Part shown: piece by piece, positions 4,882-50,917 of the stretch
How positions within the stretch are numbered: the stretch's first letter is position 1
Layout of the letters: each line of letters starts with the position of its first letter
DNA from: an uncultured Desulfobulbaceae bacterium
Lineage (GTDB): Bacteria > Desulfobacterota > Desulfobulbia > Desulfobulbales > BM004
Assembly: GCA_945787325.1 (NCBI GenBank)
Contig: CALZHP010000005.1
Span: 476 to 64,475 of the forward strand
Direction of reading: 5' to 3'
DNA: 64,000 nt
Program-made: the position numbers and the translations under genes
Notes under the pieces: generated by a model
Database searches by the model: none
What the model was told of the DNA's origin: nothing
Seen by the model: only the letters and a program-made list of their open reading frames with translations

Positions 4882-4957
4882 TTTTTATAATTTACCTTTA
4901 TAATGATTAATTATTTACAAAGATAATTACTAACAGAAGAAATTGAAATCAAGGTAA

Positions 4958-4994
4958 TAAAAAACCCGCTCGTTTGAAGTGAGCGGGTTTTTTA
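4958..4994 (-). terminator. Rho-independent terminator ending the WL/hdrA/mvhD string (bidirectional hairpin)
   Basis: Stem acccgctc / gagcgggt with a 9-nt loop, flanked by A-run and T-run. It lies 20 nt downstream of the mvhD stop. Confidence 0.75.
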
Positions 4995-5014
4995 TCGGAT
5001 ATATTTCGAAATAA

Positions 5015-34349: not shown

Positions 34350-35360
34350 ATGACAAATGAATTGAGCATAGTTTTTAATATGTGTTTTTTGTACGCAAAA
34401 AATGATCACAGGCAAAATGAAAAGGGCTTTGCGCTTATTATAGTAATTGTAGCTATGCTCCTTGCCAGCTTTCTTGCTTCACAACTGATTTTACAGGTAC
34501 GTACAAATTTGAAAATAGCCGATAATGTAAAAAAAAGAACTGCAACACGATACACATCAGAGGCTGGTATAAACCTTGGTCTTTTCAGACTTATGGACAG
34601 ACCATTGGATTTTTATAATGAAGAATATAAAATTTTTAATCTGGGCTATATTTATGAAACTGAAATATCCGGCAGAACAGTCAGTTATTATGCGGTTAAC
34701 GAAACCGGAAAAATTGATTTAAATAATGCGCCACGTAAACTGTTAGAACTTTATTTTGAATATCAAGGGCTCGATCCCGACCAAACGGCAACTTTAATTG
34801 ACTCCATACTGGATTGGAGAGATACTGATGATTTGAATAGATTAAACGGAGCTGAACAGGAATATTACCAGGGTTTAGAAGATCCTTATATTCCAAGAAA
34901 CGGCAATATTCGTGATCCTGGTGAGTTTTTTATGATAAAAGGGTCTGAACCACTATCTGGAAAAATTGTATCGGATGAAGTGTTTACGATACATAATAAG
35001 CAGAAGAAAATTAACTTTAACAGCCTGACTCCTTCTATGCTTGAATTTATAACGGGTGGAGATCAAGAAACAATAGATGCCTATAAAGAATCACAGGAGA
35101 CATATGGTAAGTTATCAGCTGTCCAGGCAAAGCTAATTCTGGGTGATGAAAGATTTAGCCTACTTAGCCCATATTTGATATATACGAACGGCCAAAACAG
35201 AAATTATTTTATTGTCGGTTTAAGCAAGTCGAGTTACTCTCTCAGTCCAACTGATGAAAAAATTGAAAAAAAACATGGACCTGGAACAAAAATAAGCGTT
35301 ATTATCGTTCTGGATAAGTATGGTTATAAATACTTATCCTGGAAGGAAAGTCTTATATGA
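34350..35360 (+). CDS. gspK: Minor pseudopilin GspK-like
   Basis: N-terminal hydrophobic KGFALIIVIVAMLLASFLAS. Motifs GKIDLNNAP, ILDWRDTDD and GAEQEYYQGL are typical of GspK. Confidence 0.7.
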   Translation: MTNELSIVFNMCFLYAKNDHRQNEKGFALIIVIVAMLLASFLASQLILQVRTNLKIADNVKKRTATRYTSEAGINLGLFRLMDRPLDFYNEEYKIFNLGYIYETEISGRTVSYYAVNETGKIDLNNAPRKLLELYFEYQGLDPDQTATLIDSILDWRDTDDLNRLNGAEQEYYQGLEDPYIPRNGNIRDPGEFFMIKGSEPLSGKIVSDEVFTIHNKQKKINFNSLTPSMLEFITGGDQETIDAYKESQETYGKLSAVQAKLILGDERFSLLSPYLIYTNGQNRNYFIVGLSKSSYSLSPTDEKIEKKHGPGTKISVIIVLDKYGYKYLSWKESLI

Positions 35361-36502
35361 AAGATGCTCTCGAAATAATCATTGAGAAAAACGGTGTTAA
35401 CATTTGTCACCCATTCTCTAATGATGCAGATATGTTTATTGATAATAAAAGTCTGCTGGGTGAAAGGTTGCTCGCCTATTGTTCAAGGAACAATATATCT
35501 TTTAGCAAGGTTTCATTATTTGTATCAGAAGAGCTGCTTTTTTTTAAATCTATAAATCTTCCTCTTAAAACACGTGATATAAAACAAGCTGTCGAATATC
35601 AACTTGATATGCTGATACCGTTTCCAAAAGAAACGATGCTCTTCAGTTATACTAACGAGCGGTTAAAAGAAAACTACAGGTTGAACCTTGTTGCTGTTAA
35701 TAAACAACTTGTGGAGCCTGTCGCACAGGAAGTGTCTAATGCCGGTTATATCATTACCGGCCTATTTCCAGAAAGCCAAAGATATATCAACCGCCTGGCA
35801 CAGAAGTCTAAATGGGCACTTGTTTTGCCTGGGAGATTTTCCAAGGTTTATACTTTTATAGGATCTCAACTTGAAGATCGTTTCCTGTGTGGCAAGGAGC
35901 CATCTTTTTCAGAACTGACTTCTCTTTGTAAATGTGACACAATTTATCATCAGCAACCCGTACAAGGCAGCAGGTACCAAAATGCCAGAGAACTCCTTGA
36001 GCAGAATCCAATACTTAAAGATTTCAACATGCTGCCGGAATCTTTCCGTCAACCAGACTATTTTAAAGTTGCAATTGTTGCTTTGATAGGTCTTAACCTC
36101 GCAGCATTATTAGTTCTGGGCGGGATAAAAGGATTTTCTTTAATACGAGCAGATAATAAAGTTGAAAACGCAATTAGCGAAATTATGCCACAAGTTAATG
36201 AGGTTAACAAATTGCGTTCCAAAGAAGATATGCTTTTAAAGAACCTGAACACTGTAGAAAGTATAAGTAAGAATCCAGACCTTATTGGTTTTTTAAAGAA
36301 CCTTTCCGAAAAGTTGCCTGAATCATCATATCTGGATCAGATGCGAATGGACAAGAAAAGCAGATCGTTTCATATTCAGGGTTATACAGAGAATGTTGGT
36401 GAATTGACTACTCAACTTCAATCCATAGGTGAGTCAAAGCTTAAATCAACAAGTCGCAGGAGAAACAGAACATACTTTCAGGTGGAGATCAGCCTGCCAT
36501 GA
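35357..36502 (+). CDS. GspL-like / PilM-PilN-type bitopic assembly protein
   Basis: The ~230-aa cytoplasmic part is followed by a single TM segment (FKVAIVALIGLNLAALLVLGGI) and a ~130-aa periplasmic part. Position between gspK and a GspM-like gene, with start overlapping gspK. The call rests on architecture, not on motifs. Confidence 0.5.
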   Translation: MKDALEIIIEKNGVNICHPFSNDADMFIDNKSLLGERLLAYCSRNNISFSKVSLFVSEELLFFKSINLPLKTRDIKQAVEYQLDMLIPFPKETMLFSYTNERLKENYRLNLVAVNKQLVEPVAQEVSNAGYIITGLFPESQRYINRLAQKSKWALVLPGRFSKVYTFIGSQLEDRFLCGKEPSFSELTSLCKCDTIYHQQPVQGSRYQNARELLEQNPILKDFNMLPESFRQPDYFKVAIVALIGLNLAALLVLGGIKGFSLIRADNKVENAISEIMPQVNEVNKLRSKEDMLLKNLNTVESISKNPDLIGFLKNLSEKLPESSYLDQMRMDKKSRSFHIQGYTENVGELTTQLQSIGESKLKSTSRRRNRTYFQVEISLP

Positions 36503-37056
36503 CATACATTCTACAAAGGATAAAGAGTTATAGCACAAGAACGCTTCTTATTGCTTTTGCCGTGTTATTGCTCGTTCTAAACATTGGTCGTTTTGCAATA
36601 AATTATTATTCAGATAAAAAAATCGAAGTCACTAGTAAGTTTGATCTTCTTGAAAAATACAGATCCGCAGCCAATACTCTTCCGGCTCTTAAAAAAAGAG
36701 TTGAGGTCTTAGAGAAACAGCAAAAAGAGAATGACACCTATTTTTTTGCAGGCAAATCCGGTGAAGAAGCGTCATCATCCATGCAGTTAAAACTTCAGGA
36801 AAATATAAGTTCATCAGGCCTGGTTCTTGAAACTCTACGACCCTCATTTAAAAAGGAAAGTTCCGAAGAAAAAAATATAGGAGAAGTGCAAATTAAAATA
36901 AGGCTTTCCGGCTCAATTGATGGTTTTGGCCGTTTTATATCGAGCATATATGAGTCCGATAAGCTTTTTCAAATTGAAAGTTTTACACTAAAGCCTTTCA
37001 AAGGATCAGGCCTAAAAATTTTCCTGGATTTGAAGGGTTATTATAAGATCTCATAA
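36499..37056 (+). CDS. GspM/PilO-like bitopic assembly protein
   Basis: 185 aa with an N-terminal TM segment (LLIAFAVLLLVLNIG), a coiled-coil-like segment and a ferredoxin-like-sized C-domain. Start overlaps the previous gene. Confidence 0.45.
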   Translation: MTYILQRIKSYSTRTLLIAFAVLLLVLNIGRFAINYYSDKKIEVTSKFDLLEKYRSAANTLPALKKRVEVLEKQQKENDTYFFAGKSGEEASSSMQLKLQENISSSGLVLETLRPSFKKESSEEKNIGEVQIKIRLSGSIDGFGRFISSIYESDKLFQIESFTLKPFKGSGLKIFLDLKGYYKIS

Positions 37057-37092
37057 TAACGGTTTGTTGAATTATTAATATTATTTGAAATT

Positions 37093-37869
37093 ATGTTACG
37101 AATTACATTAATCGCAGTTCTGGTATTATCTTTTTTCTATTTGGTGAAAGCCGGTACGATCAGTTGGCAATATGAATCAGATGAAAAAGAAATTATTTCA
37201 AAGAAAGCAGAATCTAACCAAAAGCTGTTAACTAAAAAGATAAGCTTCTATCCTGCTGTTTCAGACCCTTTACCAGATCTTAATGAAGGGTATCTCTTCA
37301 GTGAATCACGGCAAGCGGAGGTAGTCGATTCTGTAGGTATAACTGATTCTGAAGCTGCAGATAGTAATATTGATTTGGATGTAATTATGTATACCGGTTC
37401 AATAATAACACCAACTGCTCGTAAAGGTATAGTAACTTACCAGGTAAAGGAAAAAGTTGTTCGTCGAGGTTCAAGCCGTATCAGAGGAAAGGTAGCAATT
37501 ACTAAATCCGAAAACAAGCTACTTGTTCTGGGAGATTCTATTGACGGGTACGAGGTCAACGAGATTTTACCCGAAAAAATAGTATTTGTTAAAGGTGAAG
37601 ATACTGTTGAAAAACCTTTATACGATCCTGATAAGGTGAGAAAAACTCCGCCTCAACCAGCACGTAAAAAGAAAAAAGCAGCTACTGTTAAGAAACCCAC
37701 TGCTCCAGTTGTCAGAACTTCGCCAGGCACTAAAGCAACTGCAAAATCACCTGTTGACACAAAAAAAACTAGGCAACCTGGTATAATATCTCCAAGAATA
37801 CGCAGGCCACCCGCTGCTAGTCGCTTAGTCCCTTCGACTGGTCGACTACCCAGGCCTTCTGATCCATGA
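37093..37869 (+). CDS. T2SS-associated bitopic protein of unknown function with basic Pro-rich tail (possible GspC/PilP/GspN substitute)
   Basis: N-terminal TM segment (ITLIAVLVLSFFYLV). C-terminus reads KKKKAATVKKPTAPVVRTSPGTKATAKSPVDTKKTRQPGIISPRIRRPPAASR. It lies between the gspM-like gene and gspD. Confidence 0.35.
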   Translation: MLRITLIAVLVLSFFYLVKAGTISWQYESDEKEIISKKAESNQKLLTKKISFYPAVSDPLPDLNEGYLFSESRQAEVVDSVGITDSEAADSNIDLDVIMYTGSIITPTARKGIVTYQVKEKVVRRGSSRIRGKVAITKSENKLLVLGDSIDGYEVNEILPEKIVFVKGEDTVEKPLYDPDKVRKTPPQPARKKKKAATVKKPTAPVVRTSPGTKATAKSPVDTKKTRQPGIISPRIRRPPAASRLVPSTGRLPRPSDP

Positions 37870-37967
37870 TAAATATTGAAAATAATAGTCTTATATATAG
37901 AAATTTGTTAATTATTTTTTTATAAATCAATGATGATTCCAATATACATTTCTTTTGAAGGTGAATT

Positions 37968-40148
37968 ATGCGATTTAAAATAATCGTTTCAACACTTCTT
38001 TTCTTAAACATTTTTATCATTTCAGGATGCACTCCACCTAAATATTCTGACCAGAGAATGGTTAGCAAGGTTGATATTTCTGAGATAAGCAAAAAAATAT
38101 CAAGAGAAGATGCAAAAAGTGCCCTGTTAGATGTATCTGAGACAGTTGAAAAAGAGCCTCCGGGTCCGAAAATTAAAGATTTATCTGTAGAAACCTTTGA
38201 TAGAAATCCTTACCTCGACAACGTTTCAGTCCCAAAAAAAAGAAAATTACCTAAAGCTGTTGAAGGTGAAGGAATACTTCTTAACTTTGACAATGCAGAT
38301 ATATACGAAGTAATTCAGGTCATTGCTGAAACATTAGGCCTGAATTATATAATCGATCCCCAGGTTAAAGGTATTGTTAATATACGTTCCGGACAAAAGA
38401 TTCCTATGAATCAGCTATCTGTACTTTTTCGGAAAATCCTTAATATAAATGGATTGGATATCAGGCAGGAGGGAGAATACGAGTATATATTTGTTTCGAA
38501 TAAGCTTGCTTCACAAAACTTTTTTGGGCCTGGCCAGATGGGCGATCTCAAAAAATCACCCAGAATGGTTATCCAGGTATTGCCGTTGATGTACATGTCA
38601 TCGACAGAAGCCATGCAGCTTATCGAACCTTATATATCCGAACAGGGATCTGTCCACAATCTAACCAGCTCAAACACGCTTATAATTACTGATTTCGAAT
38701 CAAAAGTTATAGATTCATTAATGCTCCTTAGTCGTATTGACATTTCCCCTCTTTCATCTCTTAAGGTTCGCCTGGTTAAAATTGAAAACGCACCACTCTT
38801 TGACTTGCGTGATGAGTTACTTGAAATCCTTTCAGCACTTCAAATAAACAAAAAAGACCGTGATGCCATATCAGTAATTCCTCTTGAAAGAGTAAATTCT
38901 ATTTTATTGGTCAGCAATAACAGAAAGCTCATTGAGAGTGCAGAAGAGTGGGTAAGTGAACTTGATGTTGTTCCAACTCAGGGTAGAGATAACATATATA
39001 TATATAATGTAAGAAACTCAGTTGCATCAGATCTTGCTGATCTGGTTAATACTTTAATTAGTGACCAGGGGGATGGCAAAACATCCCAAACAAGAAGACC
39101 GGCACCTATTAGACCGGCTTCAGCAACAGAAGATTCGACAACACGGGCTGCTGCTCCTTCAACAGCTTCCAGAGGTGTCAGTTCTGGAGAAACATCTTCT
39201 TCTTTGCATTTTGCTGGTGAACCAGTTCTTATAGCAGATGACAGCCGCAACATTATTCTCTTGAGGGCTCTACCTGTTGATTATTCAAGGCTGGCCAAAC
39301 TTCTTGAACGGCTTGACAACTTACCGCGTCAGGTACTTATTGAAGTTTTGGTAGCCGAAGTGACACTAAGTGACGGGTGGGAGTTTGGTATTGAGTGGGC
39401 GTTGAAAGACAATAATCTAAATATAAATCATCATGATTACACCCAGACTTACAGTACAGAATTCGACCAAGTGGCTGCAGGTGCACTTGGAGGTTTCAGC
39501 TACAGTGCTATAAGTAATAGCGGTAGACTGATTACAGTTCTAAATGCACTTGCTGATAAAGATGATGTTTCAATACTTTCTTCTCCACAGGTGCTGGTAT
39601 TAAACAATGAAACAGCAACAGTTAATGTAGGTCAAGAAGTTCCTATTGTTACCACAGAAACCATTAATGACGATGTTAACACCAACAATACCAGAACCGT
39701 TCAATATCGTGATACTGGTATTATTTTAAATGTTACGCCAAGAATTAACTATGACGGTATTATTATACTTGATATCGACCAGCAAGTAAGTGAAGCATTG
39801 ACAGAAAACGTGACATCGGGCATAGACTCACCCGTTATCACATCCCGAGAACTCAAAACAAAACTTGCCGTAAAAGATGGACAATCCATTTTGATGGGAG
39901 GATTAATTGAAAGAAAAACTGAAAGTGGTGAAGTTGGGGTTCCATTGTTGAAGGACATACCTGTTTTGGGATGGCTTTTTAAATATCAAACCGAGACAAA
40001 CGATAAAACTGAACTGGTAATAATGATTACTCCATATGTTATTGAATCTGAAGATGTACTAGATCAGTACATAAGCCAGTTTAAATTAAAGATGGATGAG
40101 CTGCGGGGAGAGTTAACTGGCGCTGAAAGTCAAATTATGACCCAATAA
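37968..40148 (+). CDS. gspD: Type II secretion outer-membrane secretin (lipoprotein-type signal)
   Basis: Lipobox IISGC. N0 domain LNFDNADIYEVIQVIAETLGLNYIIDPQVKG. Secretin domain SSPQVLVLNNETATVNVGQEVPIVT...GIPLLKDIPVLGWLFK. Confidence 0.9.
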   Translation: MRFKIIVSTLLFLNIFIISGCTPPKYSDQRMVSKVDISEISKKISREDAKSALLDVSETVEKEPPGPKIKDLSVETFDRNPYLDNVSVPKKRKLPKAVEGEGILLNFDNADIYEVIQVIAETLGLNYIIDPQVKGIVNIRSGQKIPMNQLSVLFRKILNINGLDIRQEGEYEYIFVSNKLASQNFFGPGQMGDLKKSPRMVIQVLPLMYMSSTEAMQLIEPYISEQGSVHNLTSSNTLIITDFESKVIDSLMLLSRIDISPLSSLKVRLVKIENAPLFDLRDELLEILSALQINKKDRDAISVIPLERVNSILLVSNNRKLIESAEEWVSELDVVPTQGRDNIYIYNVRNSVASDLADLVNTLISDQGDGKTSQTRRPAPIRPASATEDSTTRAAAPSTASRGVSSGETSSSLHFAGEPVLIADDSRNIILLRALPVDYSRLAKLLERLDNLPRQVLIEVLVAEVTLSDGWEFGIEWALKDNNLNINHHDYTQTYSTEFDQVAAGALGGFSYSAISNSGRLITVLNALADKDDVSILSSPQVLVLNNETATVNVGQEVPIVTTETINDDVNTNNTRTVQYRDTGIILNVTPRINYDGIIILDIDQQVSEALTENVTSGIDSPVITSRELKTKLAVKDGQSILMGGLIERKTESGEVGVPLLKDIPVLGWLFKYQTETNDKTELVIMITPYVIESEDVLDQYISQFKLKMDELRGELTGAESQIMTQ

Positions 40149-40174
40149 AACATTCTATATAAATATTATATAAT

Positions 40175-40210
40175 AGCCTTACGTTAAGCAACGTTAGGCT
40201 GTTTTTATTT
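40175..40210 (+). terminator. Rho-independent terminator after gspD
   Basis: Stem agccttacgt / acgttaggct (9 of 10 bp) with loop taagca, followed by gtttttattt. Confidence 0.65.
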
Positions 40211-40228
40211 CTAACTAATAAATCATTC

Positions 40229-40426
40229 AACGCCATCTGTTGAACCACTAGCCCACTTCCCTTTAATAACCCATTATTTTTTTATAACAGACTGCGGGCG
40301 CAGTCTGTTATAACGTCCTTGATAGGTGGAGTGCGAGCGAATCCACAAGGGTGTTCTTTCCGAAGTGTTCAACTGTAGGCGATAAGTGAAACCGGTGAGT
40401 GATATCGAGCGGTCTCACTTATCAGT
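40229..40426 (-). repeat. ~195-nt structured repeat, copy A (inverted relative to copy B at 46271-46465)
   Basis: The reverse complement aligns by eye along its whole length with 46271-46465. Both copies share the start tgataagtgagaccgc...cacttatcgcc and the end ...caacag..ggcgtt. Copy A contains a 13-bp perfect hairpin (40283-40312) and a 12-13 bp hairpin gataagtgaaacc/ggtctcacttatc. Confidence 0.7.
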
Positions 40427-40819
40427 ATATATATATTATTAAATTTGATTTGAATAACGATAAAATTTACAGGTGAATTTATTTACCTTAAATAACATTC
40501 TTAAGTTATTCATTAGTCACATAATTTCATATTATCTTTCAGTATCAGTAAATGACTTATTAACATCTAATTATTTCAGTAATATTAATTAAAAATTTGA
40601 AATACTTTGGGAGTTATAAGTCTTATTTTAAAATGTTTTAAGAAAACAATAATTCCTATGTAATGTATTTATATTCCTTGTATCCGGAATTCCTTGCCTT
40701 AATTTCTCTACTTAATTATCGGTTTAATATTTCTTATGTCATTGTTCTATTGTTATATTTGTCTTTATATTTTACACATGTGGCACAATGTGGCAGAAAT
40801 TATTTTTTTATATCGAAAA

Positions 40820-40897
40820 TTGACACATTTTGTCAATTTATAGCCATAATTGACAAAATGTGTCACACAGGGTATACATATTGACAAATATTGTCAA
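40820..40897. promoter_or_regulatory. Array of three 17-bp TTGACA-N5-TGTCAA palindromes (candidate enhancer-binding-protein sites)
   Basis: The three sites are 40820-40836 ttgacacattttgtcaa, 40850-40866 ttgacaaaatgtgtcac and 40881-40897 ttgacaaatattgtcaa. Centre-to-centre spacing is 30-31 bp. They lie 150-230 bp upstream of the sigma54-type promoter. Confidence 0.55.
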
Positions 40898-41046
40898 TTG
40901 TGTTATAGGAAATTTATTTGATAATATTAATATGTTACATGTCATTATTAATGAAAAATGGGAGTGTCATAGTATTATAAATTTTTAAATTAGGTAAATT
41001 AAAAATCAATTTTCTTTTAGCAGACTTTATTTATATCCCCCTACCC

Positions 41047-41062
41047 AGGCACAGTTCTTGCT
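41047..41062 (+). promoter_or_regulatory. Sigma54-type -24/-12 promoter of cytochrome cassette 1
   Basis: aGGCACagttcTTGCt matches TGGCAC-N5-TTGC in 9 of 10 core positions with correct spacing. It lies 87 nt upstream of the ATG at 41148. Confidence 0.6.
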
Positions 41063-41147
41063 ATAAATAACTTTGATTCAAAATATATGTTCTTAAATGA
41101 TAAACTGGAAAGTTAATTGTTAAGTAACTTTTACTAGAGGGAAGAAA

Positions 41148-41498
41148 ATGAGAATTGGAAAAAGTAAATTTTTATTTGGCGTTTTTACATTTTTAATAGC
41201 AGTGAGTTTCATCTGCATTTCTGTAGACAATGCAGATGCTCGTAGAAGACGGAGAAGAAGACCGCCACCACCAGTATCTGAAACTGTTGGTACAGTTGAA
41301 CAGGTAATTCAGAATGAAGAAATTACCATTGTTCAAATAAACAATGGTTCTACTTTATCCTGGGTGGCTACTCCTTCAATACAGGTTTCTGTAGGCGATA
41401 GTATTTCATTAAGACCCGGCAATAGAATTAACGGCCAACACATGAGGAGACTGAACAGAACATTTGATTCCATCATCTACTCTGATGGGCCAAATTGA
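41148..41498 (+). CDS. Small secreted protein, cytochrome-cassette partner (paralog of 46857-47201)
   Basis: RBS gaggga. Signal peptide, then RRRRRRPPPP, then an ~70-aa segment (WVATPSIQVSVGDSISLRPG...RRLNRTFDSIIYS). That segment aligns with WVAVPATDISVGDRVLFKPG...KSLNRTYSRIVLS in the paralog. Confidence 0.7.
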   Translation: MRIGKSKFLFGVFTFLIAVSFICISVDNADARRRRRRRPPPPVSETVGTVEQVIQNEEITIVQINNGSTLSWVATPSIQVSVGDSISLRPGNRINGQHMRRLNRTFDSIIYSDGPN

Positions 41499-41554
41499 TT
41501 TTAATATAAAATGTCTAAGTAACAACAAAATTACAGAAGCTTTGGGAGGTCACG

Positions 41555-44500
41555 ATGGGAAGAGAGGTATTTAAACATAGGCTGCTCTTCTTAACCCTTT
41601 TATGTTTTATAGGGTTATGGGGAGCTATTAACGCTGGCAACGCACAAGCTGTACTTACTGATGCGGATTGTGCCGTCTGCCATGCTGTTGTGGCAGCAGA
41701 TCCAATAACTCCACACCATAACCTTGCTTTTCAGCAAGGTAAATCATGTTCAGAGTGCCATAGGCAGGCTAACCCTGGTTGTACAGACTGCCATGGAGAC
41801 CCAATTGTAGACCCGGCATTTCATGAAAACGCTCACAATAAAATTAGCATAGCAACAGATTGTGCCGCCTGTCATGGAAGCCCGGACATTATTGAAGTTA
41901 CACACATGGAAAACTGCTTTGGTTGTCACGAGAGCACTGATCCAAATATCATCTCTATCATTGACAACGCCATTGCAGATCCCAATGCTTCGGTAAATTG
42001 TGAAACATGTCATGGCATGCTTGGCAACCCTCAACACGCCGACCCGGACCATAGCAGGATTAACATTTTTTCTGAATGTGCAACCTGCCATGGCGATCCT
42101 GAAATTGTTGGTATAACACATCTTGACAACTGTGCTACCTGTCATAGCAGCCCTCGACCAGAAGTACAAACAATTATCGATAATGCGGTTGCTGATCCCA
42201 CCCTGCAAGTTAACTGTGCTGATTGTCACGGTGTACTCGCGGAAGCTCATGCCGCTCCAGATCATACGGAAATTCAAATTTCCGCTGATTGTCAGGAGTG
42301 TCACGGCAGCCCGGATATTGTACCGGTAACCCACTTGAACAACTGTGCTACATGTCATGCCGCACCACAGGCAATTCAGGATATTATAGATGCTGCCCTG
42401 AATAATACTGCGGTTGCTACCTGTAATGCTTGTCATGGTATATTTAATGTACAACATCCTGAGCCTATACATGACAGCCTTTCCATCTTCCCGGAATGTG
42501 CTACATGTCATGGAGACAGTGATATAATTGGCGTAACTCATATGGTGCCTTCTACATATCCATGCGGGTACTGTCATGTCAGCACAGACCAGAATGTTAT
42601 TGATACGATCAGCGCTGGCGCTGCAGGTACACCTGTTAACTGTTCAGGTTGTCATGGTACGCTCGTAGTTGTTCATGCCGCACCGAATCATACTGAAATA
42701 CAGATTTCCGCCGACTGTCAGGCATGTCACGGCAGTGTTGATATCGTGCCGGTAACCCATAATAACAACTGTGCTACCTGCCATGCCGCACCACAGGCAA
42801 TCCAGGATATTATAGATGCTGCCCTGAATAATACTGCAGTAGCTACTTGTAACGCTTGTCATGGTACCTTCCAGGAACAGCACAATAATCCGCAGCACAA
42901 CCAGATTTCAGTATTTTCTGAGTGTGCCACCTGTCATGGGGATGCTGATATTGTCGGTGTAACCCATAGAGGCTTATGTGAATCATGCCATACAAGCACA
43001 AGTCAGAATGTTATTGATACAATCGCTGCTGGTGTAGCTGGTACTCCTGTAGATTGTTCTAACTGCCATGGAGTACTAGCAGAAGCACATGCAGCTCCTG
43101 ATCATACGGAAATTCAGATTTCCGCTGATTGTCAGGATTGCCACGGCAGTACTGACATTGTGCCGGTAACCCATAATAACAACTGTGCTACCTGCCATGC
43201 TGCACCGCAGGCAATACAAGCCATTATAGATGCCGCTCTTAACAACACGGCTACTGCAACTTGTAATGCCTGTCACGGAGTGTTCCAGGAAGTACATGCT
43301 AATGTAACTCACAGCAATGTTGAAATTTCACAGCCATGTACTACATGCCATGGTGTGAACCAGACTCCGATCGGTGTTCATAATGATGATTGTCTGCTGT
43401 GCCACACCAGCACAAGGCCAGATGTCATCCAGACCATTGAGGACGGTAAAGCCGGTCTACTGGTTGGTTGTGTAGACTGTCATGGTAACGTAGACACAAC
43501 TGGCCTGAACCATCTGCCGCAGCATGATACGGAAACGCCAGAGCCATTATGTCTCGATTGCCATGATCCGAACGTTGCTCGTGAGCATTTGAATATATAC
43601 CCCGACATTGTCGAAAACTGTTTCATTTGTCATGGTGATCCAATACTTCAATCTGTAATTGAAGCCGGCAGAAGCTCGAATCCGAATGCAGTAATCATTA
43701 CATGTGCAGACTGCCATATGTTCACAACATTTGAAACCCACAATGTTGCTCATACACAAGTTGTACTTCCGTCCGACGGCTGTATTGACTGCCACGATGC
43801 TAACACTGCTACTGAACATGTTGACGTGAGAGGATGGGGTTGTACAACCTGTCACAGCAGTACACGCCAGGATGTGCAGGATGCAATTGCCAGCGGTAAA
43901 GCTGGAAATCTTGTCAACTGTACAGATTGTCACCAAGGGCCACTTGATCATGCTGCACAGCATGACCACACATTCCTGAACGCACCGGAATGTGCAGACT
44001 GTCATAGTGCTAACGTCGTCACTGAACATGTTGACAACCAGGGCTTTGGCTGCGGTATCTGTCATGACGATCCGCTCCTGGTTGAATTCATTATTAACCC
44101 GGGTATGGCCGGTACCGACATATTCTGTCAGGATTGTCATATACCGCCAACCGATCACACCAATGCTCATAATATGACGGATGTAACTGATCCTGCCTGT
44201 CTTGAGTGTCATGATTCGGATGTATCTGTAGAGCATGTGACAAACAATGGACTCAGCTGTACTGTCTGTCATGGTAACCCTGCATACGATCCTATCATTG
44301 ATAGCGGCAAGGGAGACACAGGTACACTTGTAACCTGTGATGCCTGTCATGGTGCAAACGCAGGAGATCATGTGGCGGCTCATGATATGACCCGTCTCAA
44401 CACAGGCAACTGTGCGGACTGTCACAACGCAAATGTTGTTACTGAACATGTAACTGATCACCTGTTAAGCTGTTCAACATGCCATTCAAGCACAGATCCT

Positions 44501-45952
44501 GCAGTTCAGGCCGCAATTTCTGCTGGTCAGGCCGGCCAGGAAGTATTCTGTTCAGATTGTCATGTCGGAGCCGGTATGCATACCGAACAGCACGATATGG
44601 TCATTCTGCCTGAAGCATACTGCGCAGACTGCCATGCTGGCAATGTGGTTATAGAACATGTTGACAACCGTGGTCTCAGCTGTGATACATGTCATGGCGA
44701 TCCTGTCCTACAGGATATAATTCAGGCAGGAATGAATGGCACTGCGCTTGATTGTTTGGATTGTCATATGACTACAGATCATATTACAGCCCATGACAAT
44801 ACAGATGTACCATCTCCTGAATGTGCCGACTGTCATAACGGCAATGTTGCCACCGAGCACTTCACCGATGGCGGCCTGAGTTGTCTGGTATGTCATGGTA
44901 ACACAGCTTACGATGCAATCATTGCTGCCGGCCAGGCTGGGACACTTGTAACGTGTACTGATTGTCATGGAGTATCTGATCATAGGGATGCGCACGACAT
45001 GACGGTTGTACCGCAGCCTGTTTGCGCTGACTGCCATGATCCGAACGTAGTCGTTGAGCATGTTGATAACCGTGGTTTGGATTGCGGTGTATGCCATAAC
45101 GCAACCTATCAGAGTATCATTGATTCCGGTATAGCCGGCAACCAGGTTAGCTGCCTGGCCTGTCATGGTGATCCGGACCATCATACCAACTCTAATGAAG
45201 CTTTAACCGGTAATTGTACCCATTGTCATGCTCCACCAAACAGCGCAATGGACGCACCTGTTCAGGGAGCTTGTCGTCAATGTCACATAAACAGCAACGG
45301 CTATGTACAGACATTTAATGGTACTACTGTACATGCATTTAATACCAACGGTGCTATTCAGGACTTTGGTGCCTGTTTTGCCTGCCACTCACCGCAGCCT
45401 TACCATGGTAAGCCCAACACTTGGCCTGGCTTTTTCAATGAAAATGCCGTTGCCCCGGGTAGAGGATCTTTTAATATCTTCTTCAGTCAGTTTAATCCGA
45501 GTTGTGCACCTGATTGTGAAGGTACATTCTATGAAGATCTAAACGGATACGGAGAGGACGGTCAACCCCAACGAGATGGTGGCGATACTTGGCGCAATCC
45601 AGCTATTAACTTTGACTGGGTAACAATTGAGCACATGGGTAATATGTATGATGTACCTGCATTCTCAAGCAGCCCAATGAATGGCGGAGGAGGTGATCCT
45701 CCTACCATGAATGACTCCGTGGTTATCACCTATGCTGATTACTCTTCTTGGAGTGATAGACTGACAGTTTACGCTGAGAACGCACTCGATGACGGAGCTA
45801 ATCTGAGCTTAACCTGGTGTGGTGACTCTTATTCAATGAGTTACAGTTCGAATAATGACCGCTGGGAGAAGCAAGTTGATAATGTAAACGACTGTGGTGA
45901 TGTCACTGTAACATCTGACATGGGTGGTAGTGACACTGCAACACCCAATTAA
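41555..45952 (+). CDS. Giant multihaem c-type cytochrome (about 54 CxxCH motifs, 1465 aa), secreted
   Basis: RBS gggagg. Signal peptide ending AQA. My hand count finds 54 CxxCH motifs between residues ~38 and ~1240. A haem-free ~225-aa C-terminal region follows. Confidence 0.9.
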   Translation: MGREVFKHRLLFLTLLCFIGLWGAINAGNAQAVLTDADCAVCHAVVAADPITPHHNLAFQQGKSCSECHRQANPGCTDCHGDPIVDPAFHENAHNKISIATDCAACHGSPDIIEVTHMENCFGCHESTDPNIISIIDNAIADPNASVNCETCHGMLGNPQHADPDHSRINIFSECATCHGDPEIVGITHLDNCATCHSSPRPEVQTIIDNAVADPTLQVNCADCHGVLAEAHAAPDHTEIQISADCQECHGSPDIVPVTHLNNCATCHAAPQAIQDIIDAALNNTAVATCNACHGIFNVQHPEPIHDSLSIFPECATCHGDSDIIGVTHMVPSTYPCGYCHVSTDQNVIDTISAGAAGTPVNCSGCHGTLVVVHAAPNHTEIQISADCQACHGSVDIVPVTHNNNCATCHAAPQAIQDIIDAALNNTAVATCNACHGTFQEQHNNPQHNQISVFSECATCHGDADIVGVTHRGLCESCHTSTSQNVIDTIAAGVAGTPVDCSNCHGVLAEAHAAPDHTEIQISADCQDCHGSTDIVPVTHNNNCATCHAAPQAIQAIIDAALNNTATATCNACHGVFQEVHANVTHSNVEISQPCTTCHGVNQTPIGVHNDDCLLCHTSTRPDVIQTIEDGKAGLLVGCVDCHGNVDTTGLNHLPQHDTETPEPLCLDCHDPNVAREHLNIYPDIVENCFICHGDPILQSVIEAGRSSNPNAVIITCADCHMFTTFETHNVAHTQVVLPSDGCIDCHDANTATEHVDVRGWGCTTCHSSTRQDVQDAIASGKAGNLVNCTDCHQGPLDHAAQHDHTFLNAPECADCHSANVVTEHVDNQGFGCGICHDDPLLVEFIINPGMAGTDIFCQDCHIPPTDHTNAHNMTDVTDPACLECHDSDVSVEHVTNNGLSCTVCHGNPAYDPIIDSGKGDTGTLVTCDACHGANAGDHVAAHDMTRLNTGNCADCHNANVVTEHVTDHLLSCSTCHSSTDPAVQAAISAGQAGQEVFCSDCHVGAGMHTEQHDMVILPEAYCADCHAGNVVIEHVDNRGLSCDTCHGDPVLQDIIQAGMNGTALDCLDCHMTTDHITAHDNTDVPSPECADCHNGNVATEHFTDGGLSCLVCHGNTAYDAIIAAGQAGTLVTCTDCHGVSDHRDAHDMTVVPQPVCADCHDPNVVVEHVDNRGLDCGVCHNATYQSIIDSGIAGNQVSCLACHGDPDHHTNSNEALTGNCTHCHAPPNSAMDAPVQGACRQCHINSNGYVQTFNGTTVHAFNTNGAIQDFGACFACHSPQPYHGKPNTWPGFFNENAVAPGRGSFNIFFSQFNPSCAPDCEGTFYEDLNGYGEDGQPQRDGGDTWRNPAINFDWVTIEHMGNMYDVPAFSSSPMNGGGGDPPTMNDSVVITYADYSSWSDRLTVYAENALDDGANLSLTWCGDSYSMSYSSNNDRWEKQVDNVNDCGDVTVTSDMGGSDTATPN
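42230..43290 (+). repeat. Three tandem near-identical ~414-426-nt coding repeats inside cytochrome 1 (six CxxCH per unit)
   Basis: Units start at about 42230, 42656 and 43070. Long stretches are nearly identical at DNA level. One example is ccggtaacccataataacaactgtgctacctgccatgc.gcacc.caggcaat.ca.g..attatagatgc, which encodes HAAPDHTEIQISADCQxCHGSxDIVPVTHxNNCATCHAAPQAIQxIIDAALNNTAxATCNACHG. Confidence 0.8.
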
Positions 45953-45991
45953 TATAAACCAACTGCTTTATTATAAGCAGTACAAACCAAA

Positions 45992-46030
45992 AGGGGCGGC
46001 TTCGTGAATCGAGGCCGCCTCTTTTTTTTA
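45992..46030 (+). terminator. Rho-independent terminator of cassette 1
   Basis: Stem aggggcggcttcg / cgaggccgcctct (with G-U pairs) and loop tgaat, followed by ttttttt. Confidence 0.8.
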
Positions 46031-46270
46031 TCTATTGTATGCATGGATTAAAAGAACCTTCTTCCTGTTTACAGAATTAGATATCTTTGAAGTACTTATT
46101 CAGTTTCCTAAAAATGAAGCATATACAACCTTGATCATTTAGTAAGATTACCGCTTCCTCCTAAATAAATTTCCAGTAAATTTGCAGGATATTCTCAAAG
46201 TGAAAATACATTCTTATTCACTGTACAAACTTAACCAAATTGTAATTTATGTAATTTCTGTTTATTATCA

Positions 46271-46465
46271 ATGATAAGTGAGACCGCCCGCTATCGCTCA
46301 CCTGTCTCACTTATCGCCGGCTGTTGAGCCCTTCGGCACGAACACCCTCGAGCGTTGCTCACGCTCCACCCTTTAAATGCGTTCTAACAAACTGCGTCTG
46401 CGGTCATTTATAAACATGAATGATTATAAAAGGTACGCGGGCTCGCGGCTCAACAGCCGGCGTTA
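46271..46465 (+). repeat. ~195-nt structured repeat, copy B
   Basis: See copy A. Copy B has the 12-bp hairpin gataagtgagac/gtctcacttatc (46274-46314). It also has a perfect 15-bp long-range stem, gccggctgttgagcc (46316-46330) with ggctcaacagccggc (46447-46461). Confidence 0.7.
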
Positions 46466-46607
46466 TGTTTTATAATAAGTGTAGACATTTTAATTCCTTA
46501 GCTATTACAACTATCTCAATCCTCATATTTTTGATGATACTACGTCAATCTTAACTTGATTCTTCAAATAATTAAATCGCAATATAAATTGATAAAAACA
46601 AACCAAC

Positions 46608-46655
46608 TTGACACAAAATGTCAGCTCAATATCGAATATTGACATTAATTGTCAC
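46608..46655. promoter_or_regulatory. Two 17-bp TTGACA-N5-TGTCA palindromes upstream of cassette 2
   Basis: Sites are 46608-46624 ttgacacaaaatgtcag and 46639-46655 ttgacattaattgtcac, spaced 31 bp apart. They lie 100-150 bp upstream of the sigma54-type promoter. The half-site is the same as in cassette 1. Confidence 0.55.
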
Positions 46656-46753
46656 TTCCCCGTGTTTTTCTTTTTTACAACAACAACTCATAAATATAGC
46701 CTTTTCTTTGATGTCAAAGGGATAATGATATATATCTTGTTTAATAATCTTAT

Positions 46754-46769
46754 AGGCACATATTTTGCT
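46754..46769 (+). promoter_or_regulatory. Sigma54-type -24/-12 promoter of cytochrome cassette 2
   Basis: aGGCACatattTTGCt has the same core and spacing as the cassette 1 promoter. It lies 89 nt upstream of the ATG at 46857. Confidence 0.6.
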
Positions 46770-46856
46770 TGTTTATGTTTTAATTGCTGTTATACGGACT
46801 TTATAGTTCGTAATTGCGAACAAAAAGGTAAAATTAAAGATTAGGTGGAGCTGAGT

Positions 46857-47201
46857 ATGACCAAATTGAATTATAAACAAAAACTCTTTATTGCTATCCT
46901 GTCTGTTTTCATCTTTACACTCTTTGGATTTTTAAATTTCAAAACTTCTCCATCAATCGCAGCCGAAATACAAATGGATACAGTTTCTGGGTCCGTTGTT
47001 GAAGCACACAATGTTGGAGACCGACTACTTGTATTAATTAAAAACAGAAAGGACATGTCCAAGAAGTGGGTTGCCGTTCCAGCAACTGATATTTCTGTTG
47101 GTGACAGGGTCTTATTTAAGCCCGGTATAGTTATGAATAATTTCAATATAAAAAGTTTAAACAGAACTTATTCAAGAATTGTATTATCACCCGGATCTTG
47201 A
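46857..47201 (+). CDS. Small secreted protein, cytochrome-cassette partner (paralog of 41148-41498)
   Basis: I chose the ATG at 46857 because aggtggag lies 8 nt upstream; the track starts at the GTG at 46845. Signal/TM segment LFIAILSVFIFTLFGFL. The C-terminal segment is homologous to the cassette 1 partner. Confidence 0.7.
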   Translation: MTKLNYKQKLFIAILSVFIFTLFGFLNFKTSPSIAAEIQMDTVSGSVVEAHNVGDRLLVLIKNRKDMSKKWVAVPATDISVGDRVLFKPGIVMNNFNIKSLNRTYSRIVLSPGS

Positions 47202-47269
47202 TCCGAGTCACTAATATAGGTTGAAGCATGAACGCAACTATTAAGGAAGGGAAAATCGGGAGGTATCAA

Positions 47270-50200
47270 ATGGGGATTATTACATTAAATACACGGTTAT
47301 TTCTGATAACCATGTTTGCCGCTGCCGCGCTTTGTTTTATCTATACAGGTAACGCCATGGCATTGACATCGGCAGATTGTGCAGAATGCCATGCACCAAT
47401 TGTCGCTGACCCAATAAGTCCACATCATAATCTTGCAACTCAACAGGCCCTTTCGTGTTCAGCATGTCACCGTATGGCAAGTCCAACCTGTACTGACTGC
47501 CATGGAGACCCAATAATTGACCCGGCATTTCATGAAAATATTCATTCGAACATCAGCATCGCTCCTGACTGTTCCTCATGCCATAGCAACCCTGATATTA
47601 TCCCCGTCACTCACTCTAATAACTGTACAGTTTGCCATGACAGTACTAACCAGGTTGTTATTGATACCATAGCAGCCGGTTCGCAAGGTACTGCCGTCAA
47701 CTGTGAAAACTGTCACGGTGCCCTTTCTGAAGTACATACCCCAACACACGCTCAAATCAGTATCGCAACCGATTGTGCCGGCTGTCACGGTGACCCCGCC
47801 ATAGTACCTGTTACTCATAGCGATAACTGTGCAACATGTCATAACAGTACTGACCAGGCAGTAATTGATACCATTACTGCAGGTTTCAATGGCACACAGG
47901 TCGACTGTAACAATTGTCATATAAGCATTAACCATACAGCGCAACACGATCAAACCTTTGTACCTGAAGCGATTTGCGCCGATTGTCATGACGGTAATGT
48001 TGCGGTAGAACATACAGTTAATCACTCTTCAACTTGTACTGCTTGTCATAATGACCCATTGCTTGCTTCAATAATTGATAGTGGTAAAGCGGGCAATGCT
48101 GTAGTTTGCACGGACTGTCATACAGCTACAACACTTGCTTCTCATAATTCTCTTCATGACAAAACAGTACTTCCATCAGATGGATGTATTGAATGTCATG
48201 ATGCCAATGTAGCAGTTGAACATGTTGATAACAGGTCAATAGGCTGTACAGACTGCCATAACAGTACTCGACAAGAAGTACTGGATGCAATCGCCAACGG
48301 TATCTCTGGAATGACAGTTAACTGTTCAGATTGTCACCTTGGACCTCTTGATCATCAGGCAGCTCATGATATGACAAGGACAGACGATGTTTCCTGTCAG
48401 GACTGTCATAACCAGAATGTTGTAACAGAGCATGTCGACAACCAGGGCATTAGTTGCAGCAGCTGTCATGATGACCCAATGATACAAACTATCATTGCTT
48501 CAGGTGTGGCTGGCAACATTGTAGTGTGTGCTGACTGCCACATTATGTCCGACCACACAAACGCCCATAATAATACAGATGTAACGGATTCTGCCTGTCT
48601 CGAATGTCACGATCCGGATGTATCTGTTGAACACGTTGCCAACGGCGGCCTCAGCTGCCTTGTTTGCCATGGCAACACGACTTACGATGCGATCATTGAC
48701 AGCGGTAAAGGTATAGCAGGTACACTCGTAACCTGTGATGCATGTCACACAAATGCCGGTGATCATACAGCGGCACATGATATGACAAGTCTTAACTCAG
48801 GCGACTGTGCCGAGTGTCATAATGCCAATGTAGTTACAGAGCATGTTGATGTACGACTGTTAAGCTGTTCAACATGCCACTCTAGCACAGATGCTACGGT
48901 TCGGGCTGTAATAGAATCCGGCCAGAACGGTCAGGAAGTATTTTGTTCAGATTGTCATGTGGGTGCCGGAATGCACTCAGATGAGCATGATATGGTAGAC
49001 GTACCAGATTCTTTATGTGCAGACTGCCATAATGGAAATGTTGTAATTGAGCACGTTGATAATCGAGCTCTTACCTGTAATACATGTCACGGTGATCCTG
49101 AACTTCAGAGAATCATTCAGTCCGGCATGAATGGAACTGCTCTTGATTGTTACGATTGTCATATGACAACTGATCATGCAGCTGAACACGACAATACAGA
49201 CGTTCCATCAGCGGAATGTGCAGAATGTCATGACGGCAATGTTACAGTAGAGCATATTGACAACCGCGGCTTAAGTTGTCTTGTCTGTCACGGCAGTGCT
49301 ACGTACGACTCAATCATTGCAGCGGGACAGACTGGTACACAAGTAACATGTACAGACTGTCACGGTGCAGCAGATCATAGTGCGGCCCATGACATGACTG
49401 TTGTACCGCAAGCGGTATGTGCTGATTGTCATGATCCGAATGTAGTAGTAGAACACGTTGATAACCGAGGTTTCGATTGCGGAATCTGTCATAACAGCTC
49501 ATATCAAGGCATAATTGATTCAGGTATTGCCGGCAATCAGGTTAGTTGTTTAAACTGCCATAATACTCCGGATCATCATGCAAACTCGAATGACGCAAAA
49601 TCAGGGAACTGTACACTGTGTCATCAAGTAACGAGTAGTGCAATGGATGCTCCTGTTATTGGCGCCTGTCGCGAATGTCATATAAATAATCAGGGATATG
49701 TCCTTCAGAAGAACCTGTCGAGTGTGTTAACTAGCCATAGAATTAACACCCAGGGCGATATCCAGGATTTTGGTGCCTGTATTACCTGCCACAACTACAG
49801 CAGCAATTCTGCTCCTTATGTCCAACCTTATCACGCTAAGCCGAGCAGCAAGCCGCGATACTATATCAACAACATTACCGAGGCTCCGGGCCGTGGTTCC
49901 TTCAACCTCTTCTACGACCAATGGCATAGAAATAGTGGCGAAGACAACGAAGGCAAGGAACCAGGATGTGGTGAAGATAGCAGCTGTAACGGTAGCAGCT
50001 GGCGCAATCCAGAAATCAGTTTCCAGTGGTTAACTATAGATTACAATGGAAATCTGTATGATGTACCGGCTTTCTCTGATAGTGGTAATAGACCGGACGG
50101 AGGAGGTCCTCCTGTTGATCCGCCTACCGGTGGTGGCTGTGAAATTGATGCGAATGGGACCTATGTTGAATCCGAAAATTATAATGCCCTTGGCAACAAC

Positions 50201-50917
50201 TGGTCCGTACAAAGTGGCGACGGAAACGGCAATGGTTATCTGTATGCTACAGCAAACAGCACTAGCTCTGTTTCCGGTAGCCCGGCTGAATACGACCTTA
50301 CCTTTACCGAGTCCGGCACCTACTACATCTGGTTCCGTGGTAAAGATAATGGAAGTTCAGATGACAACTCACTCTGGTATGGAGTTGATGGTTCCATGAA
50401 AGGCAACGCTACAACTCCTGCAACAAACAATAACTGGAGTTGGACAAGGACCCCTCATAATACTGGTCCAAATCCAACCCGCATAACCATAAACAGCGCC
50501 GGCACATATACCGTTACTATATGGGCCAGGGAGAATGGCTTCCGATTCGACGGCTTCTATGTAACCAAGAGCAGCAGCTCAATATCCGGTTCCATTCCCA
50601 GCGGTGCTGACATTGTTGATCCCACCAACTGCGGTGGCGGAGGTGAACCACCTGTAGATCCACCTCCTGCTAACGATGACTCCGTAAACATCACCTATGC
50701 AGATTATTCATCATGGAGAGATAGGTTAAGGGTCTATGCTGAGAATGACCTCGATGATGAAGCGAATCTGAGCTTGACCTGGTGTGGAGAATCCTATTCG
50801 ATGAGTTATATTTCGAGTAATGACCGCTGGGAGAAGGAAGTCAACAACGTCAACGACTGTGGTGATGTTACGGTAACTTCAGATAGGGGCGGCAGTGATA
50901 CTGCAACGGCCAACTAA
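47270..50917 (+). CDS. Giant multihaem c-type cytochrome (about 36 CxxCH motifs) with lectin/CBM-like beta-sandwich insertion, secreted
   Basis: I preferred the ATG at 47270 (gggagg RBS; MGIITLNTRLFLITMF... parallels the cytochrome 1 N-terminus). The track start is 47228. My hand count gives 36 CxxCH motifs. Long stretches are collinear with the C-terminal two thirds of cytochrome 1. Confidence 0.9.
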   Translation: MGIITLNTRLFLITMFAAAALCFIYTGNAMALTSADCAECHAPIVADPISPHHNLATQQALSCSACHRMASPTCTDCHGDPIIDPAFHENIHSNISIAPDCSSCHSNPDIIPVTHSNNCTVCHDSTNQVVIDTIAAGSQGTAVNCENCHGALSEVHTPTHAQISIATDCAGCHGDPAIVPVTHSDNCATCHNSTDQAVIDTITAGFNGTQVDCNNCHISINHTAQHDQTFVPEAICADCHDGNVAVEHTVNHSSTCTACHNDPLLASIIDSGKAGNAVVCTDCHTATTLASHNSLHDKTVLPSDGCIECHDANVAVEHVDNRSIGCTDCHNSTRQEVLDAIANGISGMTVNCSDCHLGPLDHQAAHDMTRTDDVSCQDCHNQNVVTEHVDNQGISCSSCHDDPMIQTIIASGVAGNIVVCADCHIMSDHTNAHNNTDVTDSACLECHDPDVSVEHVANGGLSCLVCHGNTTYDAIIDSGKGIAGTLVTCDACHTNAGDHTAAHDMTSLNSGDCAECHNANVVTEHVDVRLLSCSTCHSSTDATVRAVIESGQNGQEVFCSDCHVGAGMHSDEHDMVDVPDSLCADCHNGNVVIEHVDNRALTCNTCHGDPELQRIIQSGMNGTALDCYDCHMTTDHAAEHDNTDVPSAECAECHDGNVTVEHIDNRGLSCLVCHGSATYDSIIAAGQTGTQVTCTDCHGAADHSAAHDMTVVPQAVCADCHDPNVVVEHVDNRGFDCGICHNSSYQGIIDSGIAGNQVSCLNCHNTPDHHANSNDAKSGNCTLCHQVTSSAMDAPVIGACRECHINNQGYVLQKNLSSVLTSHRINTQGDIQDFGACITCHNYSSNSAPYVQPYHAKPSSKPRYYINNITEAPGRGSFNLFYDQWHRNSGEDNEGKEPGCGEDSSCNGSSWRNPEISFQWLTIDYNGNLYDVPAFSDSGNRPDGGGPPVDPPTGGGCEIDANGTYVESENYNALGNNWSVQSGDGNGNGYLYATANSTSSVSGSPAEYDLTFTESGTYYIWFRGKDNGSSDDNSLWYGVDGSMKGNATTPATNNNWSWTRTPHNTGPNPTRITINSAGTYTVTIWARENGFRFDGFYVTKSSSSISGSIPSGADIVDPTNCGGGGEPPVDPPPANDDSVNITYADYSSWRDRLRVYAENDLDDEANLSLTWCGESYSMSYISSNDRWEKEVNNVNDCGDVTVTSDRGGSDTATAN

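Follow-up and report, generated by a model that had tools for sequence, protein, structure and literature searches.

A sigma-54 promoter with three phased PilR-type boxes probably controls a giant cytochrome cassette in an uncultured Desulfobulbales bacterium

The NtrC enhancer of the Escherichia coli glnAp2 promoter is built from 17-bp palindromic dimer sites that lie about three helical turns apart, 100–140 bp upstream of a sigma-54 promoter; these sites nucleate the active oligomer of the activator, and contact with the polymerase is made by DNA looping. In both Pseudomonas and Geobacter, PilR and RpoN are known to be required for expression of pilA, the type IV pilin gene (PMC2725144; PMC6058289), and the pilA promoter that PilR activates in Geobacter is of the RpoN type (PMC2725144). 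A preprint gives the size of the Geobacter PilR regulon as at least 44 genes, with c-type cytochromes among them (bioRxiv 10.1101/319194, citing Juarez 2009). The principle that PilR and RpoN co-regulate pili and cytochromes is already known from Geobacter. The PilR consensus of P. aeruginosa has been quoted as TGT-N11-ACA (PMC8035640), the register of which differs from that of the TGACA-N5-TGTCA core described below. A published PilR box was also sought in a Desulfovibrio response-regulator atlas, which covers a Tad-type pilus regulator without usable motif text, and in the P. aeruginosa PilSR paper, in which a binding consensus was not found.

In this study, the control region of a cytochrome gene cassette was analyzed in the genome of an uncultured Desulfobulbales bacterium (2.78 Mb in 144 contigs, a 90% complete assembly). 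The window, i.e. the whole stretch of 64 000 nucleotides that was analyzed, corresponds to contig C5:476–64475. Long-range or extracellular electron transfer is a candidate function of the giant multihaem cytochromes found in uncultured, sulfur-cycling Desulfobulbales, and the window contains two cassettes that encode such proteins. The sequence elements upstream of cassette 1 make it likely that it is controlled by a sigma-54 promoter and, upstream of this, an enhancer of three dimer sites for a PilR-type bacterial enhancer-binding protein (bEBP), and the giant haem proteins are probably switched on together with pili, much as in Geobacter. The features of the two cassettes are as follows.

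40172..40204, + strand: intrinsic terminator of the upstream secretin gene (hairpin, −15.2 kcal/mol, then a U run)
40820..40836, no strand: PilR-type box 1, distal, TTGACAcatttTGTCAA, a perfect 17-bp palindrome centred at about −245 from the predicted start
40850..40866, no strand: PilR-type box 2, TTGACAaaatgTGTCAc, last base imperfect and 15-bp core perfect, centred at about −215
40881..40897, no strand: PilR-type box 3, proximal, TTGACAaatatTGTCAA, a perfect palindrome centred at about −184
40898..41046, + strand: A+T-rich putative looping spacer
41047..41062, + strand: sigma-54 −24/−12 promoter element AGGCACAGTTCTTGCT (AGGCAC-N5-TTGCT), weight-matrix score 15.0
41148..41498, + strand: first gene of cassette 1, encoding a small secreted partner protein of 116 aa without a Pfam family
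41555..45952, + strand: gene for a 1465-aa, 54-haem cytochrome with cytochrome c7/c3 repeats (Pfam), predicted to be co-transcribed with the small gene
45989..46025, + strand: intrinsic terminator ending cassette 1 (hairpin, −27.7 kcal/mol, then a U run)
46608..46624, no strand: PilR-type box of cassette 2, distal, centred at about −164
46639..46655, no strand: PilR-type box of cassette 2, proximal, centred at about −133
46754..46769, + strand: sigma-54 −24/−12 element of cassette 2, AGGCACATATTTTGCT, again AGGCAC-N5-TTGCT, weight-matrix score 15.4

The terminator at 40172–40204 parts cassette 1 from an upstream operon of pilus/secretion type, the secretin of which was identified by Pfam; as a second terminator follows the cytochrome gene, cassette 1 is a self-contained promoter-to-terminator unit. 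A GAGGGA ribosome-binding site precedes the ATG at 41148, and the gap between the small gene and the cytochrome gene is 57 nt. An orthologue search with the small partner protein gave a 25–40% identical C-terminal domain in 106 of 151 genomes, mostly in proteins of ∼300 aa, and no orthologous cassette was found. PilM/N/O-like and secretin genes (type IV pilus or type II secretion type) occupy 35357–40148, directly upstream of cassette 1, a neighbourhood consistent with the cytochromes being connected to a pilus-type export machine.

Direct reading of the sequence gave three palindromes with the core TGACA-N5-TGTCA, starting at 40820, 40850 and 40881 and thus separated by 30 and 31 bp from start to start; these positions and this phasing had been given in a first-pass annotation of the window and hold, with the outer base of box 2 being imperfect. 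As they are three helical turns apart, the boxes lie on the same face of the DNA. The AT-rich spacer of about 150 bp noted in the same annotation measures 149 bp and contains 78% A+T, compared with 57.5% in the genome. In the promoter element the GG doublet (41048–49) and the GC doublet (41060–61) are 10 bp apart, the exact sigma-54 spacing, and there is one mismatch to the consensus TGGCAC-N5-TTGCW, so that the earlier reading of aGGCAC-N5-TTGCt at 41047–41062 was correct; the distance between the element and the ATG at 41148 is 85 nt, however, and not 87 nt. Sigma-54 transcription starts about 12 nt after the GC doublet, and from the position of the −24/−12 element the start of cassette 1 is predicted near 41073.

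The arrangement, with several dyad sites on one helix face upstream of a −24/−12 element and box centres at −184, −215 and −245, corresponds to that of bEBP enhancers, for which sites about 80–200 bp upstream were taken as the criterion. Such sites usually lie 100–140 bp upstream, whereas those of cassette 1 are farther out. The NtrC enhancer of glnAp2 likewise has 17-bp sites about three helical turns apart, but with another recognition sequence and another regulator; cassette 1 has three equal sites at the longer distance of 184–245 bp, and the regulon concerns surface structures instead of nitrogen. Distances between the GG doublet and the proximal box, measured at 12 loci, gave best periods of 10.1–10.5 bp (R = 0.54, p ∼0.03); as these loci are not all independent, this weak helical-turn periodicity is suggestive only. 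A search of the cassette 1 spacer for the IHF consensus WATCAANNNNTTR with at most one mismatch yielded one weak match and none that was convincing; looping would thus rest on intrinsic curvature or on another protein, and the 78% A+T content alone could serve as a bending aid. Within the 150 bp upstream of the boxes there is a direct repeat, TGTGGCA-N3-TGTGGCA, at 40780–40796, and this region could be the site of a second regulator or simply part of a copied regulatory module. A search of 40000–47300 against Rfam returned sub-threshold chance matches only, such as RNA-OUT over the palindromes (24 bits against a cut-off of 41).

The core TGACA-N5-TGTCA occurs 19 times in the genome, whereas 3.8 occurrences are expected from the product of the half-site counts. 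Control patterns with spacers of 3–11 bp other than 5 gave 1–12 occurrences, and the reversed pattern with a spacer of 5 gave one. The spacer consists entirely of A/T in 10 of the 19 cores (0.24 expected), and 13 of the 19 fall into six arrays with members 30–32 bp apart. Two of these arrays belong to the cytochrome cassettes, one each to the genes for a collagen-like protein, a hybrid sensor kinase and the type IV pilin, and one to a small-peptide locus. The genome scan proposed in the first-pass annotation thus revealed a non-random distribution. Within the window, the count of the 17-mer with at most two mismatches is not enriched (6 against 5.2 expected); five of the six matches belong to the cassette control regions, three at cassette 1 and two at 46608 and 46639. 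The symmetrised logo of the box reads TGACA-A-W-W-W-T-TGTCA. The conserved unit had been described as TTGACA-N5-TGTCAA, of which the palindrome stands; the outer T of the hexamer does not, as it is not conserved at the other boxes and C or G is favoured in other genomes, and the unit is the 15-bp core TGACA-AWWWT-TGTCA.

The association of the box with sigma-54 promoters was evaluated using a weight matrix written by hand from approximate consensus frequencies. Over 5.6 Mb (both strands) this matrix gave 138 sites scoring at least 13.5 and 46 scoring at least 15; scoring of the cassette 1 element, another check proposed earlier, placed it among the latter by this hand-made matrix, with 15.0. 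Strong −24/−12 elements lie 100–160 bp downstream of the boxes at cassette 1 (15.0), cassette 2 (15.4) and on contigs C55 (16.4), C54 (15.4) and C36 (13.7). A match of at least 13.5 is present within 300 bp at no fewer than five of the nine box loci (binomial P ∼1e-7). The recurrence of this pairing at cassette 2 and at further loci supports the earlier suggestion that the palindrome is a bEBP site next to a sigma-54 promoter. The loci outside the window are as follows.

C55: three boxes with 31/30-bp phasing, followed 147 bp further on by AGGCACGCTTCTTGCT (score 16.4), upstream of the gene for a 509-aa secreted collagen-like protein
C56: perfect cores at 5442 and 5474, 32 bp apart, upstream of the type IV pilin gene 4671–5120 (MMRLFRKQNKEKGFTLIELM...)
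C18, 17254–19485, − strand: 743-aa hybrid sensor kinase, with two perfect boxes ∼95–140 bp before it
C46, 11947–11608, − strand: strong sigma-54 element, then a reading frame for a membrane peptide of ∼52 aa, then a double box
C54: single box 95 bp from TGGCACGGAAAATGCT (score 15.4), upstream of the gene for a repeat protein of >1000 aa that is Calx-beta-like by eye
C36: two boxes with one mismatch each, together with a sigma-54 element (score 13.7), flanked by the gene for a GAF-domain bEBP on one side and a minor-pilin cluster on the other

The −24/−12 element of the C56 pilin gene is weak (score 10.0), and no recognisable element was found between the C18 boxes and the start of the kinase gene. 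By eye, the C18 kinase has a multi-pass membrane N-terminus followed by apparent PAS, kinase and receiver regions, and its boxes may represent feedback on the sensor of the same circuit. At C46 the putative enhancer lies ∼265–400 bp downstream of the promoter, and this arrangement is kept in another genus of the family (L071/L072, genomes G002/G012). Cassette 2 repeats the organization of cassette 1, with a small gene at 46845 and a 1229-aa cytochrome at 47228–50917 (Pfam). The only alignable sequence that the two cassettes have in common is that of the boxes and the promoter (z ∼0 elsewhere), which, in the manner of a footprint, argues for selection on precisely these elements. Since the box is common to the pilin, cassette 2, collagen-like, Calx-beta-like and hybrid kinase loci, both cytochrome cassettes appear, from these shared sites, to belong to a pilin-centred cell-surface regulon.

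The box was then followed to pilin genes of other genomes. Across 401 genomes of the same order, an exact search for double boxes (two cores 14–18 bp apart) gave six places in this genome and one place in each of 10 of the 400 others, which represent five families; the reversed control pattern was found in none of the 401. In seven of the ten other carriers the double box lies 100–250 bp upstream of the type IV pilin gene pilA, and in five of these seven a −24/−12 element scoring at least 10 is situated between them. In two of the seven (G239 and G329), genes for a sensor kinase and a response-regulator bEBP diverge from pilA; at these loci (L086, G239:C23:20000–30500; L087, G329:C77) the double box is located between a Geobacter-type short pilin gene and the divergent kinase and bEBP genes. 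Furthermore, in a named-genome sample of 80 pilin loci (236 kb), 15 perfect cores were counted, compared with 0–1 at spacers of 3, 4, 6, 7 and 8. For nine of the 15, the pilin ATG follows 125–251 bp downstream; in eight of these nine cases a sigma-54 element with a score of at least 10 is situated between the box and the pilin gene, and in six of them the score is at least 14.5. The box-bearing pilin loci include those of Pseudomonas koreensis, P. gregormendelii, Acinetobacter ihumii, Methylotenera and a zetaproteobacterium, as well as Geobacteraceae. Because it is found upstream of pilA across lineages, mostly with a sigma-54 promoter in between, the box behaves as a PilR box. Judged by its position in all of these genomes, it is an upstream activating site of the pilin gene, here and in many phyla, and is not specific to cytochromes, so that the activator is most likely to be PilR.

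The system of cassette 1 resembles the PilS–PilR/RpoN system of Geobacter sulfurreducens in that a sigma-54 promoter is combined with an NtrC-family response regulator and in that one regulon unites the type IV pilin with cytochromes of extracellular electron transfer (PMC2725144; bioRxiv 10.1101/319194). In a Geobacteraceae genome the TGACA-N5-TGTCA box likewise lies between pilR and pilA, and the PilR encoded there is the reciprocal best hit of a bEBP on contig C59 of the present genome. However, pilR here adjoins neither pilA nor the cytochrome genes, the targets are giant cytochromes of 1229–1465 aa, each with a small partner gene, and the putative enhancers are arrays of two or three phased boxes where Geobacter has one. 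The pilA genes of Pseudomonas (P. koreensis and P. gregormendelii) similarly have a box ∼90 bp upstream of a strong −24/−12 element, but this is a single box and not a phased array, and the regulon consists of pili and motility instead of cytochromes.

The machinery for such control is encoded in the genome. The rpoN gene is intact (PF04552 at C32:13986–14462, 209.9 bits, in a 491-aa open frame without stops), and there are ∼19 bEBP genes, three of which are cut by contig ends. The first-pass annotation had noted the absence of a bEBP gene from the window, which was borne out and extends to the whole contig. Among these bEBPs, the protein encoded at C59:6055–7449 has receiver, AAA+ ATPase and DNA-binding (HTH) domains and is followed by a 555-aa protein (C59:7498–9165) with a multi-pass membrane N-terminus, which, judged solely by its N-terminal sequence, is assumed to be a kinase of PilS type. 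The C59 bEBP and the Geobacteraceae PilR, whose gene is immediately upstream of the box and pilA, are reciprocal best hits with 49–51% identity, compared with 43–45% for paralogues. Both contain the recognition helix SFRSxRY (C59, ISFRSLRYKVQKYG, SFRSLRY; Geobacteraceae PilR, MSFRSFRYRLAKFG), as does a bEBP of P. koreensis (LSFRSMRYRLKKLG). The latter, with SFRSMRY, is encoded ∼20 kb from pilA on the same contig and is presumed to be PilR from a blast match. Among all reading frames of the present genome the S-F-R-S-x-R-Y helix occurs only in C59, and homologues of C59 with 76–80% identity carry the JGI name PilR. Comparison of C59 with solved structures returned generic NtrC-family entries only; the NCBIfam scan of eight bEBPs included no PilR model and gave no regulator of known site above the cut-off, the only match above it being a PEP-CTERM regulator model for a protein on contig C4. 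Because it shares the PilR recognition helix, the C59 PilR is the probable activator at the boxes of cassette 1.

The mechanism can be outlined in steps that are taken from NtrC-family activators. Sigma-54 RNA polymerase would form a closed complex at 41047–41062, and the C59 PilR would be phosphorylated by its neighbouring membrane protein (C59:7498–9165), the assumed kinase. Activator dimers would occupy the three boxes on one helix face, three dimers supplying the six subunits of an AAA+ ring. The A+T-rich spacer would then loop so that the ring contacts sigma-54, and ATP hydrolysis would open the promoter for a start near 41073.

The boxes might also form a bEBP/sigma-54 enhancer to which a protein other than C59 binds, namely the GAF-domain bEBP of C36, its paralogue on C7 or the pilA-adjacent paralogue of the relatives, lost here in an assembly gap. 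The C36 gene (C36:6319–7875) is divergent from pilin-like genes, with the two one-mismatch boxes and the sigma-54 element (13.7) in between. Moreover, the bEBP next to the boxes and pilA in G239 and G329 belongs to a separate orthologue group with the helix S[YF]PSLLxKIKEY, which is conserved with 55–60% identity in G026, G157, G316 and G382, the four other box-bearing relatives searched; a different paralogue at this position means that the assignment of box to protein is not one-to-one across the order. An assembly that is 90% complete in 144 contigs, with three bEBP genes cut at contig ends, also leaves room for such a loss. On the other hand, the HTH helices of the C36 and C7 proteins (ITRQGLHKKIKRY and ITRVGLDNKIKRY) differ from the one found together with the box in Geobacteraceae and Pseudomonas. 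The G239/G329 protein was rejected as a model of the activator, as the assembly contains no orthologue of it (best match 44–46%, none above 46%) and its partner kinase is also missing (no match above 34% identity). A binder other than C59 is therefore regarded as unlikely, if a serious candidate. The C7 protein (C7:6282–8228) and the C36 protein are paralogous bEBPs with unusual N-termini: one of the pair bears a HisKA-like phosphoacceptor segment and a receiver domain, while the other has an apparent GAF domain (by eye, from partial alignment to NifA/FhlA models) and is encoded beside the minor-pilin cluster with near-consensus boxes.

The palindromes could instead be operators of a dimeric repressor or activator that is not a bEBP, with TTGACA serving as sigma-70 −35 boxes and the −24/−12 match being incidental. 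TTGACA is indeed a perfect −35 hexamer, TATAca or TATAgg is found 17 bp after each of boxes 2 and 3, and −10-like hexamers are easily found in a region this rich in A+T. A scan of 40100–41200 for sigma-70 promoters gave nine sites, compared with 8.1 in shuffled sequences, none of which lies on these hexamers. Sigma-70 use of TTGACA was rejected on this shuffle-level count and on the lack of conservation of the outer T at other boxes. Furthermore, a suitably spaced −10 element is absent from cassette 2 and C55, and across loci and phyla the box occurs together with sigma-54 elements far more often than by chance; taken together, these results make an operator of this kind very improbable.

The control regions of cassette 1 and C55 are homologous over ∼450 bp (window 40700–41062 against C55:14990–14598 on the minus strand; 59–60% identity, z 3.7–4.7), including the 150 bp upstream of the boxes and the spacer, so that the two count as one origin. 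This homology is what would be expected if the repeats were remnants of a duplicated DNA segment without a regulatory role, but that explanation is dismissed because cassette 2, C18, C46, C56 and the loci of other genomes share the boxes and nothing outside them, with invariant cores between flanks at background similarity and with the 30–32-bp phasing preserved in independent sequence contexts.

With the three boxes and the −24/−12 element of cassette 1 thus read as a probable PilR-type enhancer and its sigma-54 promoter, a more far-reaching scenario may be considered, albeit tentatively and with more doubt than conviction: PilS–PilR may have been rewired in this lineage from a pilin regulator to a master switch for the pilin, two cytochrome cassettes, a collagen-like fibre protein, a Calx-beta-like adhesin and a hybrid kinase, with three-site enhancers templating one complete hexamer and, at one conserved locus, with the enhancer downstream of its gene. 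Relative to the known systems, the new aspects are the lineage (uncultured Desulfobulbales), the giant-cytochrome, collagen-like and adhesin targets, the phased arrays of several boxes and the breadth of conservation of the box. The analysis provides a regulon of about eight promoters that can be searched for in metatranscriptomes, a named candidate activator with a neighbouring candidate sensor, and a sequence rule (arrays of TGACA-AWWWT-TGTCA with a −24/−12 element) for co-regulated surface and electron-transfer genes in related genomes. As the box accompanies pilA from Pseudomonas to Geobacteraceae, it is also useful for the annotation of PilR regulons generally.

Cassette 1 is in addition bracketed by a GC-rich structured repeat of ∼195 nt, which is without an Rfam match. 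Its copies, at 40229–40426 (inverted) and 46271–46465, are in inverted orientation with 75.5% identity and are the only two in the genome.
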